A stretch of DNA of 64,000 nucleotides from [Phormidium] sp. ETS-05. GTDB taxonomy: Bacteria > Cyanobacteriota > Cyanobacteriia > Cyanobacteriales > Laspinemataceae. The DNA is taken from NCBI RefSeq assembly GCF_016446395.1, contig NZ_CP051168.1, positions 3,685,579-3,749,578 of the forward strand, written 5' to 3'. Below the pieces are notes generated by a model. That model saw only the letters and a program-made list of their open reading frames with translations, ran no database searches and had not been told where the DNA came from. Below, in pieces: positions 13,120 to 24,060 of this stretch. Position 1 is the stretch's first letter; every line of letters starts with the position of its first letter. A program made the position numbers and the translations under genes.

Positions 13120-15246
13120 TTAATCCACAGTGTTATCGGCTTCGGCGCGGATAAATGCCCGATCGCTCACTGATATGCCCTTAGAGGAAATCCCCAAAGC
13201 ATTTAAATCAGCTTCCACCATCAATCCTACCAGTTCCTCAAAAGTCACCGATGGTTCCCAGCCCAGCTTTTGCTTTGCTTTCGTGGGGTCGCCAATCAAT
13301 AAATCTACTTCTGCGGGACGGAGATAGCGGGGGTCAAATTCCACATAGTTTTGCCAATCGAGATTGACATAGCCAAATGCCAAATCCAGAAACTCGCGAA
13401 TCTCGTGGGTTTCGCCAGTGGCGACCACATAATCATCGGGTTCGGGTTGTTGCAGCATCAGCCACATCGCCCGCACATAATCTTTGGCATAACCCCAGTC
13501 CCGCTTAGAATCCAGATTACCCAGATAGAGTTTTTTCTGTTTTCCGGCGACGATGCGGGCCACGGCGCGAGTAATCTTGCGGGTGACAAATGTCTCGCCA
13601 CGACGGGGGGAATTGTGGATCCAACCCTGACCAATACCAGCATGGAAAGTCCCGCTGGTAGTGGCTAGGTCAAATAGCCAGTTGTCGTATTCAATGGGCT
13701 GGGCTTTCACCACTTCTGCCAAGGGTCGGCGCAGATGCTGTCCTTTGTTCCCAGGCACATCGGGAGAATTCAGATTAATTTGGTAGTAAATCCGTCCTTC
13801 TCGCTCTTCTGTGCAAATAATTGCTCGTTGCTCTAGGGTTGTCAACGCCATCCAGTACAGACCGGCAGCCATGACGGGGGAGGCAGTTTTGAAGCCCTGA
13901 AACTCATATGTGCAAGGTGTACTCTTGAGTCCGTCGCCAGCGTTGAATCCCTGCAAAAATGCTAAGCGTTCTTGGTAGCAAGCATTGAGAATGCGTTTGG
14001 GGATACGCTTATGGCCCGATCGGCTGTACAGGGAGTTATAAATGTAGCGACCATATTCAGGATTTCCATTCAGGCGGAGCTGAGTTACATCGCCACCGCC
14101 TTCAAAACCCGAAGCAGCCACATATCGAGAAGAACTGCCACCAGTAATTTTGCGCCAAGAGGCAGCCACGCGCTCGAGTAAGGCAGAATCTTGGTTAGTG
14201 ACTTGGACTTTCCCTTCTTCACTGACGTAACCTTCCGCCGCAATTATCCCTAGCAACCAGGCTTCGGTTTCCGTCAAATCGATTTGGTCTGTGGGTTGGG
14301 GCAAGTCAATCAACGCGAGGGAGTCACCCACCATCACTTCCCCGGCGGGCCGCTCACAGGGTTGTTCATCTTTGGTGACAAACACCACGTGGTCGCTAGT
14401 GGCATGATACACCGCCCCCCGAGCCGCAATTCGATGTACCTGTTTATTGGGCTGGCGTTTGGCACCATTCCAAGTGGCGGTCATACAAGTAACTTCCGTC
14501 CACCCTTGGGCGTCCCAAACCTGAAATCGGTCTTCAGGAGACAAATCGGTGGTATAGCGATGACCATGTGTGGCATCTGTGCGATGGGGGACCACATCCT
14601 CGATCGGCAAAATGTCAATCAAGCCATCTTTTCTAATGATCACTGGTGTTTCCGCCGTGACACATTCGTGGTTGAACAGGATGCCGTTACAAGCAAATAA
14701 GTTGTAAGACTCCCGATAATTGACGGTTTGCCAATGAGCGTAAACCTTGGCGCAGGAGTAGGGACTGCGCGGATAAAAAGGTGTGGTTTCTTTTTGGGGA
14801 ACTTCCAGCACTTTACCGAACATTTCCGAGGAACCGGCTTGGTAGAAGCGGACCTGGGTGCCGGTGCGGTGTTCATAGTCCCGGATGGCTTCTAACAGGC
14901 GTAGGGTGCCCATCGCCACAGTATCCACGGTATATTCCGGTGAGTCGAAGCTAACCCGGACGTGAGATTGGGCGCCAAGGTTGTATATTTCTACGGGTTG
15001 GACTTCTTCCAATATCCGCCGCAAGGTGGTGCCATCGGTGAGGTCGCCGTAGTGGAGAAATAGGCGAGCGGTTTCGTTGTGGGGGTCTTCGTAGATATGA
15101 TCGATGCGGTCGGTGTTAAAGGTGGAGGTCCGGCGGATGATGCCGTGGACTTCATAGCCTTTTTCTAGTAACAGCTCGCTGAGGTAGGAGCCGTCTTGAC
15201 CTGTAATGCCGGTGATGAGCGATCGCTTCGGTTGCGTCATCCTCAA
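13120..15246 (-). CDS. gmd: GDP-mannose 4,6-dehydratase precursor interrupted by an in-frame intein (357-aa extein plus 351-aa intein)
   Basis: Extein motifs: ITGITGQDGSYLSELLL, YSCAKVYAHW and ...FACNGILFNHE|...|SPRRGETFVTRKITRA. The 708-aa ORF is about twice the normal Gmd length, and the extra block lies between E194 and S546. Confidence 0.9.
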   Translation of the reverse strand: MRMTQPKRSLITGITGQDGSYLSELLLEKGYEVHGIIRRTSTFNTDRIDHIYEDPHNETARLFLHYGDLTDGTTLRRILEEVQPVEIYNLGAQSHVRVSFDSPEYTVDTVAMGTLRLLEAIRDYEHRTGTQVRFYQAGSSEMFGKVLEVPQKETTPFYPRSPYSCAKVYAHWQTVNYRESYNLFACNGILFNHECVTAETPVIIRKDGLIDILPIEDVVPHRTDATHGHRYTTDLSPEDRFQVWDAQGWTEVTCMTATWNGAKRQPNKQVHRIAARGAVYHATSDHVVFVTKDEQPCERPAGEVMVGDSLALIDLPQPTDQIDLTETEAWLLGIIAAEGYVSEEGKVQVTNQDSALLERVAASWRKITGGSSSRYVAASGFEGGGDVTQLRLNGNPEYGRYIYNSLYSRSGHKRIPKRILNACYQERLAFLQGFNAGDGLKSTPCTYEFQGFKTASPVMAAGLYWMALTTLEQRAIICTEEREGRIYYQINLNSPDVPGNKGQHLRRPLAEVVKAQPIEYDNWLFDLATTSGTFHAGIGQGWIHNSPRRGETFVTRKITRAVARIVAGKQKKLYLGNLDSKRDWGYAKDYVRAMWLMLQQPEPDDYVVATGETHEIREFLDLAFGYVNLDWQNYVEFDPRYLRPAEVDLLIGDPTKAKQKLGWEPSVTFEELVGLMVEADLNALGISSKGISVSDRAFIRAEADNTVD
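13612..14664 (-). other. intein (351 aa) with LAGLIDADG homing-endonuclease motifs inserted in gmd
   Basis: N-terminal Cys (CVTAETPVII, block A) and a TxxH block B (TDATHGHRY). Two LAGLIDADG-like motifs (LLGIIAAEGYV and FLQGFNAGDG). The C-terminus is ...FDLATTSGTFHAGIGQGWIHN followed by Ser+1. The insertion is exactly within the conserved Gmd motif GILFNHE/SPRRGE. Confidence 0.8.
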
Positions 15247-17785: not shown

Positions 17786-18286
17786 ACAGCAGTTTGGCCC
17801 ATACCCCACAAATCCTAATCTTTTTTAATTTCCTATCTTAATTCAACCCAAGCTGTGCTAATGTCAGCCAAACTACAAAACTCCTCTATTGTTGTCCCCA
17901 CTCCTCAGTCCCTTGTGCAAGGACTTTTGACAAACGATCAAACACTTTTGCTACAAGACTTTTGGGGACATATGATTGGTGGGTTCGATCGCCCTTCTCA
18001 AAGCAGCCGCAAAAGCCGTTTCCAGATTCAGAGACTTTGGCTGCAACCATTTGGGTCCCCCCCGCCCCCATAGCCCCCTTTTTCCTGGGAGTGGCCGGGA
18101 ACGCTGAGTATAAACTCTCAGGTTTCCGTGACTTTGGCAATATCTTAACCCAAATAGAGCATTTTTCTCCCGGAGCGCCAGTGGCTATAGAAGGTCCCCC
18201 CTTCGGCTCCGGGACTGTGAGAACAAGCAATATTCCCCCCTGCCTCTACCAGGACCTCAAATAATTAAAAAAATCTGCAAAAAATT

Positions 18287-18302
18287 ATGAACACCTGTTC
18301 AT
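18287..18302. promoter_or_regulatory. candidate SmtB/ArsR-family operator (ATGAACA-CC-TGTTCAT) about 35 bp upstream of smtA
   Basis: A perfect 7-2-7 inverted repeat of the TGAACA/TGTTCA type used by ArsR/SmtB repressors. A TATGAT -10-like box follows at 18306-18311. Confidence 0.5.
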
Positions 18303-18336
18303 GTGTTATGATATAAGCGGATGAATTTCAGGAAAC

Positions 18337-18510
18337 ATGACTATGACTACTGTCACCCAGATGAAATGCGCTTGTGAGTCTTGCCTCTGCATCGTTTCTC
18401 TGAGCGAAGCGGTGGCAAAAGAAGGTAAATATTACTGCTCGGAAGCCTGCGCCAGCGGTCATACCAACGGTTCTGGCTGTGGACATACTGGCTGCACTTG
18501 CCACGCCTAG
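18337..18510 (+). CDS. smtA: metallothionein (SmtA/BmtA family), 57 aa, absent from the ORF track because it is shorter than 60 aa
   Basis: MTMTTVTQMKCACESCLCIVSLSEAVAKEGKYYCSEACASGHTNGSGCGHTGCTCHA. The Cys/His pattern KCACE.CLC...YYCSEAC..GH..GS.GCGHTGC.CH is shared with Synechococcus SmtA. Confidence 0.9.
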   Translation: MTMTTVTQMKCACESCLCIVSLSEAVAKEGKYYCSEACASGHTNGSGCGHTGCTCHA

Positions 18511-18546
18511 GAGGTCGATCGCCCGATCGTAAAGGCACAAACACAA

Positions 18547-18589
18547 GATCGCCAGCAATAGTGGTTGAGACTCGCAATTGCTGGCGATC
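18547..18589. other. perfect 14-bp inverted repeat (GATCGCCAGCAAT...ATTGCTGGCGATC) between smtA and smtB; a hairpin, possibly a terminator or attenuator
   Basis: Seen directly in the sequence. No clear U-tract follows. Confidence 0.35.
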
Positions 18590-18683
18590 GAGTGAAATTT
18601 ATGGAAATAATCTCTAAATCACCTATCGCCCAGCTTAAACCAGCGCTATACTATAAATCGGCGGAGCGGGGGGCGAAAAGCAA

Positions 18684-19172
18684 TTGAGTAAATATGAGAT
18701 AATTTTTTTTCAGTTCCCGCGACCTACCGATACCCTATCCTATCAAGTGCCAGTGGAAATCCCAGATAACCATGATTTTGACGCGGTAGTTAACCCTGGT
18801 GTGGAGGCTGCAGATGAAGAAGAGTGCGAGCGAGACCACACCATAGATTTTGACGACATCAGCACCCTGCGAAATCAGCTCCTCAACTCAGAAAAAGCCC
18901 AAATGATGGCGGAGTTTTTCAGCTTTTTGGGGGATGCCAATCGCTTGCGAATCATCTCAGCGTTAGCCCTCAAAGAGCAATGTGTCCACGAACTAGCTGC
19001 CACTGTCACCATGAGTGAATCCGCTGTTTCTCATCAGTTGCGGAATTTACGCGCTCACCGACTCGTAAGCTATCGCAAGCAGGGACGCCAAGTTTTTTAT
19101 CGCCTCAAAGACCGACATATATTCAGTCTCTATGAAGCGGTAGCGGAACATATTGATGAAAAAGATAGCTAA
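18684..19172 (+). CDS. smtB: ArsR/SmtB-family metal-responsive transcriptional repressor
   Basis: LGDANRLRIISALA...ELAATVTMSESAVSHQLRNLRAHRLVSYRKQGRQVFYRL is a winged-HTH region. The alpha5 metal site DRH-x10-H-x2-E (DRHIFSLYEAVAEHIDE) is present. The true start may be internal, since the N-terminal extension is long. Confidence 0.8.
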   Translation: MSKYEIIFFQFPRPTDTLSYQVPVEIPDNHDFDAVVNPGVEAADEEECERDHTIDFDDISTLRNQLLNSEKAQMMAEFFSFLGDANRLRIISALALKEQCVHELAATVTMSESAVSHQLRNLRAHRLVSYRKQGRQVFYRLKDRHIFSLYEAVAEHIDEKDS

Positions 19173-19266
19173 AAGATAAAATAACCACCTCCCTGAGCCG
19201 GTTCTGTCCCCAAGGCCAAAGGAGGCAGTTTTTTACTAAATGGGTTAACTAGCGAACTTTCCCTAT

Positions 19267-19548
19267 TTAAACCTGCTTGTAGAATCTCTCTTTAGGAATC
19301 AGCTTCCCATGATCCAACTCGAGGCAAACTTCCTGGACTATTTCGGCGTGCTTATTAAACAAATTGATACTAATAGAATCACCCCCAGTATATGCTACTA
19401 AAGAAGCAGTAAAAGGTTGCTTAATCGTTATATCAAAAAGCCTGACATTGTGGGGAGAAGCAGTAATTAATTCAAAATCGCTATCGTTGAGCTTGCTCAT
19501 CTTAAAAATTTCCCAATTAAACTGTAATTTATCCAACCCAAAGGCCAA
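19267..19548 (-). CDS. hypothetical protein in a low-GC patch
   Basis: Only the 93-aa ORF itself supports this; I recognise no motif. The local GC is lower than in the surrounding sequence. Confidence 0.25.
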   Translation of the reverse strand: MAFGLDKLQFNWEIFKMSKLNDSDFELITASPHNVRLFDITIKQPFTASLVAYTGGDSISINLFNKHAEIVQEVCLELDHGKLIPKERFYKQV

Positions 19549-22162: not shown

Positions 22163-22789
22163 ATGCAGCTTCACAATCTTGATATCGATGGCTCCTCTCT
22201 CCCACCGGGGGAAATAGCAGAAGACAGAGGTTTGGGCACGATCGTCAGCGCCGCCGAAGTGATTGTCATCATCAATCCCGACTCAGCCCCCATTCAGCGT
22301 ATCATCAGCCGTGCCCGGGAAGAGGGGAGACTAATGGACTTGACCAAAGGTGCGTCGGCGCGAAAAACTCCGTCGGCGAAGCTATCGGCCATCTTTCTCT
22401 GTGCCCCCAACCATACCACGACTCCCGGCAACATCATCCTCGCGGCGATGTCCCCAGAAGCCTTTAGCCATCGCTTTTCTATAACTCAAAGCAGTTTAAA
22501 ACAATCCTATTACTCGGCTAATACTGAAATTTCGATGAATATTCAACTAATAAATATCGGTTTTGGTAATATAGTTTCTGCTAACCGAGTCGTGGCGATC
22601 GTCAGTCCCGAATCTGCCCCCATCAAGCGCATCGTCAGCGAAGCCCGTTCCGCCAACCGGCTCATCGATGCCACTTATGGCCGTCGCACCCGTGCTGTTA
22701 TCGTCACCGATTCTGCTCACGTGATTCTCTCCGCCATTCAGCCAGAAACCGTCGCCCACCGGTTTATCACCCATAAAGACGGTCAATGA
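22163..22789 (+). CDS. tandem DUF370 protein: a divergent DUF370-like N-terminal half fused in-frame to a canonical RemA/YlzA-like C-terminal half
   Basis: C-terminal half from the ATG at 22535: [77 protein letters not shown]. The N-terminal half, [37 protein letters not shown]...[17 protein letters not shown], is a degenerate copy with a 25-aa insertion. The gene is immediately upstream of gmk, as remA is in Bacillus. Confidence 0.6.
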
Positions 22790-22990
22790 CAATTGATAAT
22801 TGACAATTGATAATTGATAATTGATAATTGACCAAGGACAAATGACAATCCCCCAACCCCCTTTGAAAGGGGGGGGACAATTGACAATTGACAATTATCA
22901 ATTGTCAAAGGACAAATGACCAAGGACAAATGACCAAGGACAAATGACAAATGACAAATGACCAAGGACAAATGACAAATGACAAATAAA
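22790..22990. repeat. heptamer tandem arrays (CAATTGA/GATAATT, then GGACAAATGAC) with an inverted central section
   Basis: caattgataattgacaattgataattgataattgataattgacc ... caattgacaattgacaattatcaattgtcaa ... gacaaatgaccaaggacaaatgacaaatgacaaat. Confidence 0.85.
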
Positions 22991-23884: not shown

Positions 23885-24060
23885 AATCAACTTTTGTCCT
23901 TAGTCATTTGTCCTTTGTCACTTGTCCTTAGTCCTTAGTCATTTGTCACTTGTCACTTGTCCCTTGTCATTTGTCACCAAAGGATAATTGACAATTATTA
24001 ATTATCAATTATCAAAGGACAAAAGACAAAGGACAAAGAACCAATGACCAATGATATTTA
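23885..24060. repeat. STRR heptamer arrays in inverted arrangement
   Basis: tgtccttagtcatttgtcctttgtcacttgtcc... / ...caaaggacaaaagacaaaggacaaagaaccaatgaccaatga. Confidence 0.8.

Follow-up and report, generated by a model that had tools for sequence, protein, structure and literature searches.

The genome of [Phormidium] sp. ETS-05 contains a short open reading frame (ORF) for a metallothionein, smtA, which is preceded by a palindrome and followed on the same strand by the gene of an ArsR/SmtB-type repressor, smtB. This arrangement raises the question of whether the two genes form the metal-responsive switch described in other cyanobacteria, and of how the repressor gene is expressed when it lies behind its presumed target. 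The locus was analysed within a stretch of 64,000 nucleotides (nt) of contig NZ_CP051168.1 (positions 3,685,579 to 3,749,578), hereafter called the window, in which all coordinates below are counted from the first letter. Most probably it is a classical SmtB/SmtA locus, in which the metallothionein gene is induced by metal. The smtA/smtB locus is real, of textbook kind and ordinary, being one further example of the best-studied bacterial metallothionein switch. Both of its genes are already present in RefSeq, and the guanylate kinase encoded in the window is identical to WP_199245481.1 of the same organism. The genome paper (PMC7650686) mentions neither metallothionein, nor SmtB, nor zinc. The features on which the following argument relies are collected in Table 1.

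Table 1. Features of the smtA/smtB locus of [Phormidium] sp. ETS-05, in window coordinates.
Feature	Position	Strand	Basis
Predicted 12-2-12 SmtB/ArsR-type operator, AAATTATGAACA-CC-TGTTCATGTGTT	18282..18307	+	29.8-bit matrix match, conserved position
Candidate extended -10 of the smtA promoter, TGtTATGAT (hexamer 18307-18312)	18304..18312	+	read from the sequence
5' untranslated region block GATGAATTTCAGGAA with ribosome-binding site AGGAA (18330-18334)	18320..18334	+	conservation
smtA/bmtA metallothionein coding sequence, 55 amino acids	18343..18510	+	PF02069, 1JJD alignment, RefSeq WP_199250430.1
Stem-loop, candidate 3'-end element of the smtA transcript (partial terminator/stabiliser)	18547..18589	+	fold energy, conservation
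Conserved non-coding spacer and smtB leader	18590..18746	+	identity to relatives, indels
-10-like element TATACT, candidate smtB promoter	18647-18652	+	conserved
-10-like element TGaGATAAT (extended -10), candidate smtB promoter	18695-18703	+	conserved
smtB, ArsR/SmtB-family metal sensor/repressor	18747..19172	+	PF01022, 1R1T, alpha5 ligands

The metallothionein identity of the first gene, proposed in a preliminary description of the locus, is borne out by all comparisons. The 57-codon ORF at 18337-18510 on the forward strand, with the product MTMTTVTQMKCACESCLCIV...GCGHTGCTCHA, matches Pfam family PF02069 over the whole profile (positions 1-51 of 51; E=9.8e-27, 93.4 bits for a cut-off of 33), and all nine cysteines and two histidines that act as ligands of the Zn4 cluster are in register with those of SmtA (1JJD, E=5e-19). 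The 112 homologues all belong to PF02069 and are cyanobacterial wherever their source is named, and an alignment of 39 metallothionein homologues revealed ten invariant columns (C11, C13, C16, C18, C34, C38, H42, C48, H50 and C55). The length of 57 residues initially given for the product does not hold. Nearly all homologues start with MTTVTQMKC, the AGGA at 18330-18333 is separated by 9 nt from the ATG at 18343 and by just 3 nt from the one at 18337, a 1-nt insertion comes between the two ATGs in the related locus L086, and the 55-residue product is exactly RefSeq entry WP_199250430.1, named “metallothionein”. On these four grounds the start of smtA is placed at the second ATG, and the upstream in-frame ATG is probably unused. 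The DNA of the gene is 95% identical to that of the related contig L081, with six of the eight differences falling in third codon positions. The product is predicted to bind Zn/Cd and the gene to be metal-induced. Its absence from an initial list of ORFs had been taken as a gap in annotation, which it is not, as RefSeq already contains the gene; metagenome gene callers do skip it on two related contigs (L081 and L082), and the loss of tiny metallothionein genes by gene callers is a known problem (PMC3323870).

The second gene is likewise what it had been taken for, a repressor gene of the ArsR/SmtB family placed after smtA on the same strand. The ORF ending at 19172 encodes a winged-helix ArsR-type domain (Pfam PF01022, HTH_5, E=1.2e-13), and among solved structures the closest is that of SmtB from Synechococcus PCC 7942 (1R1T, E=3.4e-29, residues 26-120), in which the core of the recognition helix, SESAVSHQLR, is identical. 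The alpha5 zinc ligands D143, H145, H156 and E159 (ORF numbering), corresponding to Asp104, His106, His117 and Glu120 of SmtB, are invariant among 25 aligned sequences including SmtB, as is the alpha3 cysteine C100 in the same alignment and numbering. In addition, an N-terminal C-E-R-D-H, of the form C-x3-H, corresponds to Cys14 and His18 of SmtB. Judged from its sequence, the downstream gene is thus a true SmtB-type sensor with intact alpha5 zinc ligands.

The start of smtB is annotated inconsistently, the NCBI versions comprising a gene call of 141 amino acids, WP_233258774.1 (123 amino acids) and WP_346341794.1 (109 amino acids, the current RefSeq model), the last of which loses the N-terminal Cys/His motif. 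Family members of 132-139 amino acids begin at a codon that lines up with the starts of some 20 homologues. It is ATG in close relatives (L081/L087, L086 and P0250) and ATC at 18759 in ETS-05 and in L082, so that initiation would take place at GTG 18753 (139 amino acids), at GTG 18747 (141 amino acids), the earliest start common to all relatives, or at the non-canonical ATC itself. An upstream TTG at 18684 (162 amino acids), at which the ORF list has the gene begin, was rejected as a start: it is TTT in L081/L087, its frame is also broken by a 2-nt insertion at about 18714 in L086, and the family starts 25 codons later. Comparison therefore favours a product of about 139-141 amino acids that keeps the N-terminal Cys/His motif.

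One part of the sensor departs from its model. The alpha3 motif reads CVHE, against CVGD in SmtB and CVCD in BxmR and ZiaR, with Glu at the position of Asp64, one of the alpha3N ligands of SmtB (Cys14, His18, Cys61 and Asp64). This would suit a regulator that senses something other than Zn/Cd (Cu(I)/Ag(I), as BxmR does, or redox conditions), or one whose targets are elsewhere and which stands beside smtA incidentally. Its nearest named relatives (65-70% identity; Oxynema and Laspinema) point in the same direction, being encoded in znuABC-type clusters, where AzuR is found too. We nevertheless regard this explanation as very unlikely, given that the alpha5 zinc site is fully conserved, that the sole operator found in 64 kb fronts smtA, and that AzuR, though encoded in a znuABC cluster, still regulates a metallothionein gene (PMC8790569).

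A perfect 7-2-7 palindrome, ATGAACACCTGTTCAT, lies exactly at 18287-18302 and constitutes the core of a 12-2-12 box, an imperfect inverted repeat with TGAA/TTCA cores; the exact core TGAACANNTGTTCA has a single occurrence in the window. Symmetry alone proves nothing here, since perfect 7-2-7 palindromes are not rare in the window (13, against about 3.8 in shuffles). A weight matrix made from 62 cyanobacterial smtA upstream sites is more discriminating, scoring 29.8 bits at 18282-18307 and only 5.6 bits at the next independent site of the 64 kb, a match of 7.0 bits being the same box in an overlap shifted by 8 nt. We also surveyed 80 species-representative cyanobacterial loci with smtA, defining the box as TGAA(C/T)A-NN-TGTTCA with at most 3 mismatches over the 12 core bases. 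Such a box is found upstream of smtA in about 75 of them, whatever the gene arrangement. Where it stands no more than 120 nt from the ATG (71 loci), the most frequent spacing between core and ATG is 38-41 nt. The corresponding distance in the window is 41 nt, and the complete 12-2-12 box ends 35 nt before the ATG at 18343. Its right half-site, TGTTCA, is invariant in L086 and L081/L087. The unique matrix match, the conserved position and a layout like that of the nmtA gene of Anabaena make the prediction of an SmtB operator at 18282-18307 well supported, so that the initial suggestion of a repressor site in the palindrome can be retained. No second SmtB box was detected before smtB, where the best score in the spacer is -12 bits, or elsewhere in the window, where the best independent score is the above-mentioned 5.6 bits.

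In most of the surveyed loci the box is followed, directly after its right arm, by a TAnnAT element. In ETS-05 this position is occupied by the candidate extended -10, which is invariant in four relatives, and the start of smtA transcription is predicted near 18320. The block at 18320-18334 is invariant in the window, L082, L086 and L087, and the adjoining bases vary. Within this leader, GATGAATTTCAGG (18320-18332), unchanged in four relatives, includes a short palindrome, TGAA-T-TTCA, at the place where some species have a second SmtB box, though its matrix score is not that of such a box.

The order of the genes had been presented as a departure from the known divergent pair, and its implied unusualness is not sustained by the survey. 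The 80 smtA loci comprise 37 with a divergent smtB, 27 without smtB within 4 kb, 15 with smtA followed in tandem by smtB and one convergent pair (46% divergent, 34% unlinked and 19% tandem). With 15 of 80 species loci, the tandem order appears as a common natural alternative (L013, L021, L022, L028, L035, L042, L049, L057, L063, L066, L071-L074 and L080). These loci, for instance in metagenome-assembled genomes of Leptolyngbya, Altericista and Chamaesiphon, share with ETS-05 the order, the strand and the same operator about 50-60 nt upstream of smtA. They differ from it in the junction of the two genes: in most of them the smtA stop codon and the start of smtB are 0-35 nt apart or the two genes overlap, and in the distant loci L066 and L074 the first candidate start of smtB may be as far as about 130 nt off, whereas the ETS-05 lineage has a long conserved spacer with a stem-loop. 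They also differ in their SmtB N-termini, which carry an EDGEDLCC motif. No experimental description of a tandem pair with smtA first was found in the literature.

A stem-loop of another kind, GGGGAAG...CTTCCCC (-19 to -31 kcal/mol), was observed in twelve tandem loci (L013, L021, L022, L028, L035, L042, L057, L063, L071-L073 and L080), inside the 5' coding part of smtB and 30-90 nt past the smtA stop codon. It was rejected as a shared RNA structure, as a covariation test was not significant and 78% of its cells are paired against 75% in shuffles (38 of 500 shuffles being as high); the pairing may be no more than a consequence of the conserved peptide EDGEDLCC...PH.

Three experimentally known systems help to situate the locus. 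The first is the smtA/smtB divergon of Synechococcus elongatus PCC 7942 (Huckle 1993, Morby 1993 and Turner 1996, cited in PMC8790569 and PMC4628125). Its metallothionein belongs to the same family as that of ETS-05, with all Zn4 ligands conserved, its repressor has the same recognition helix and alpha5 site within the same repressor family, and its operator half-sites, TGAACA/TGTTCA, are of the same type. The layout is different, since the PCC 7942 genes diverge round a shared operator-promoter of 100 bp with two boxes, whereas both ETS-05 genes are on the forward strand, with one box and with smtB downstream across about 240 nt containing a stem-loop. The boxes of PCC 7942, S1/S2 and S3/S4, are situated round and after the -10, and that of ETS-05 before it. 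In eight surveyed loci (L001, L009, L014, L017, L019, L040, L047 and L075) the -10 of the smtA promoter is flanked on both sides by an SmtB box, as in PCC 7942; a single box is the rule in the other loci and is also what the window has. The divergent arrangement also occurs among relatives of PCC 7002, in NIES-970, a strain related to Picosynechococcus sp. PCC 8807, and deletion of smtB in Synechococcus 7002 derepresses smtA only (PMC4628125).

The nmtA gene of Anabaena sp. PCC 7120 is closer in its promoter. It has a 12-2-12 box 36 nt upstream of the ATG that overlaps the -35, with a transcription start mapped at -23 by rapid amplification of cDNA ends, and both the binding of AzuR to this box and its release by metal have been shown by electrophoretic mobility shift assay (PMC8790569). 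ETS-05 likewise has a single box, in a nearly identical geometry, and nmtA is likewise easily overlooked in annotation. The regulators are placed differently, azuR being unlinked to nmtA and located within znuABC, whereas the ETS-05 regulator is directly downstream of its target. The nearest named relatives of the ETS-05 SmtB (Oxynema sp. CENA135 and Laspinema sp.; L083-L085) are not beside a metallothionein gene; their genes are found between an ABC-3 permease gene and genes for ABC_tran and ZnuA proteins, on the opposite strand of a znuABC-like cluster, which is the placement of AzuR in Anabaena (PMC8790569).

A co-oriented pair is known from Oscillatoria brevis, whose bxmR and bmtA genes are described as an operon (Liu et al. 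2004, cited in PMC8790569 and PMC10141476). As in ETS-05, the two genes are on the same strand in a filamentous member of the Oscillatoriales; no intergenic hairpin is described for that operon. The alpha3 motif of BxmR is CVC, and its range of signals extends to Cu(I)/Ag(I). In the bxmR-bmtA operon the regulator gene reportedly comes first, whereas in ETS-05 the metallothionein gene does.

The junction between smtA and smtB is what sets ETS-05 apart among the tandem loci. An inverted repeat had been noted there at 18547-18589, and it is present, with a perfect, G+C-rich stem of 13 bp and not 14, the fourteenth position being mismatched on either side. The stem pairs 18547-18559 with 18577-18589 round a loop of 17 nt, begins 37 nt 3' of the smtA stop codon and has a free energy of -27.1 kcal/mol, and its 121-nt context folds with z=-5.95 relative to shuffles. 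L087 and L086 retain 9-12 bp of the stem as a core, with a loop shorter by 4-5 nt and eroded stem ends, giving weaker stem-loops of -19.0 and -17.2 kcal/mol. It is not a dispersed repeat, as no further copies were found in the window. Perfect hairpins of at least 11 bp are by contrast abundant there, with 18 hits, 17 of them distinct, against about 0.1 in shuffles; 13 of the 17 are intergenic and about nine lie within about 100 nt 3' of a long ORF. Considering this clustering 3' of ORFs, long hairpins without a U tract look like the usual 3'-end element of the ETS-05 genome. A role of the smtA stem-loop as terminator or attenuator of read-through into smtB, as originally proposed, is plausible, and we infer that it acts as a 3'-end element of the smtA transcript, either a partial terminator or a stabiliser.

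The same abundance of perfect hairpins, far above that of shuffles, also speaks for another reading, in which the stem-loop would have no part in smtA/smtB expression and would be an incidental palindrome round a HIP1-like GCGATCG, or an element acting at the DNA level. Its 3' arm indeed ends in GGCGATCG, like the HIP1 palindrome GCGATCGC that occurs 20 times in the window, and no compensatory changes were seen in the stem. This reading appears unlikely to us, since the core stem is kept in three diverged relatives though the length of the loop changes, the distance of 37 nt past the stop codon matches the usual placement of hairpins at gene 3' ends in the window, and no repeated family is involved.

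The sequence that follows the stem-loop is itself conserved. The two genes are separated by about 236-242 nt, and this spacer is 77-90% identical to that of L081 (81-90% over the part at 18590-18746), against 54-63% with many indels for the intergenic flanks; the SmtB proteins of L081 and of the window are 88% identical. Indels of 1, 2, 3, 4 and 5 nt among the relatives over the whole spacer (18511-18746) indicate that it is non-coding, and the small ORFs at 18498-18617 and 18565-18687 were rejected, the relatives having indels of 1, 3, 4 and 5 nt in them. A search of 18100-19300 for Rfam families at a permissive threshold returned none beyond a chance match to a small nucleolar RNA (E=0.32). 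The two -10-like elements of the spacer would provide smtB with candidate promoters free of an operator; neither was called by a consensus scan, for which a -35 is needed. As a feature of this lineage, the conserved spacer and the stem-loop in it are modest and not surprising.

These observations bear directly on the main rival to a partial terminator, namely that the stem-loop terminates completely, so that smtA and smtB are separate units and smtB is expressed constitutively from a spacer promoter without autoregulation; the readings that invoke an incidental stem-loop or a different metal are weaker. The great stability of the hairpin (-27.1 kcal/mol), the length (about 240 nt) and conservation of the spacer, its two conserved -10-like elements and its lack of an operator, and the difference from the other tandem loci, with their gaps of mostly 0-35 nt or overlaps, all agree with two separate units. 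Complete termination is harder to reconcile with a stem that lacks a U tract and that weakens to between -17 and -19 kcal/mol in the relatives, and neither candidate smtB promoter has a -35 match. We hold it to be possible but somewhat unlikely.

The model that we favour, with a partial 3'-end element, can be outlined as follows. Metal-free SmtB dimers would bind the single 12-2-12 operator at 18282-18307, which would extend over the -35 and the promoter spacer as far as the candidate extended -10, and would thereby keep RNA polymerase off the smtA promoter. Binding of Zn(II)/Cd(II) at the alpha5 site, and possibly also at alpha3N, would lower the affinity of the repressor for DNA and allow transcription of smtA from about 18320. 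Most smtA transcripts would end at the stem-loop, or be trimmed back to it and stabilised there. Read-through of the stem-loop would supply part of the smtB transcripts and thus a feedback of repressor in proportion to induction, and the operator-free promoter or promoters of the spacer would supply a basal level.

Several results weigh against parts of this model. A U tract is absent 3' of the stem, where the tail reads AGTGAAATTTATGG, and the consensus terminator scan did not call the element, which for want of a U tract is not a canonical intrinsic terminator. The stem shows no compensatory substitutions among the relatives, only erosion of its ends, so that the constraint may be on the sequence and not on an RNA structure. 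The consensus promoter scan called no promoter for either smtA or smtB, in the case of smtA because there is no -35 match. Lastly, the left half-site of the operator varies among close relatives (TGAACA, TGAATA and TGATTA), though such variation is normal for boxes of this type.

A more far-reaching version would see in the ETS-05 lineage a distinct feedback that has evolved from the classical switch, combining a single operator, a conserved stem-loop by which read-through into smtB is metered, and an internal promoter free of an operator, with the loss of the ancestral smtB ATG in this strain (ATC 18759) forcing the use of a weak GTG, and yielding low repressor levels and a high and fast metallothionein output suited to metal-rich thermal mud. 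We mention it as a speculation that is probably wrong.

The surroundings of the locus contain a few further features. Upstream of the smtA promoter, a region of about 370 nt (17887-18260) is only 54% identical to L081, with large G/C-rich indels, and is probably non-coding. The ORFs located there, 17886-18230 on the reverse strand and 17962-18264 on the forward strand, are probably not genes, in view of calls on opposite strands in two relatives, of the lack of a Pfam match and of this 54% conservation with indels. On the other side, an ORF of 93 amino acids at 19267-19548 on the reverse strand runs towards smtB; gene callers report it in L081 and L082 as well, and it has no Pfam match. Farther away, a GDP-mannose 4,6-dehydratase gene (13120-15246, reverse strand) contains an interrupting, intein-like insert of some 350 amino acids that starts with a Cys after GILFNHE and ends with ...GWIHN before SPRRGETF. 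Its match to Pfam GDP_Man_Dehyd falls into two parts, with a weak LAGLIDADG_3 match at residues 328-361, and the same split gene is present in L081. Intergenic arrays of heptanucleotide tandem repeats (TGACAAT, GACAAAT and TTTGTCA; 9-16 copies) at 22787-22987 and 23893-23977 are similar to the short tandem repeats known from filamentous cyanobacteria, and they yield long spurious ORFs on both strands.

The importance of this locus for biology at large is small. It illustrates that metallothionein genes of this size are still lost by metagenome gene callers. The survey made around it provides a usable picture of the arrangement of smtA and smtB over the cyanobacteria, and the geometry from operator to -10 that is common to the surveyed loci could aid the design of metal biosensors.

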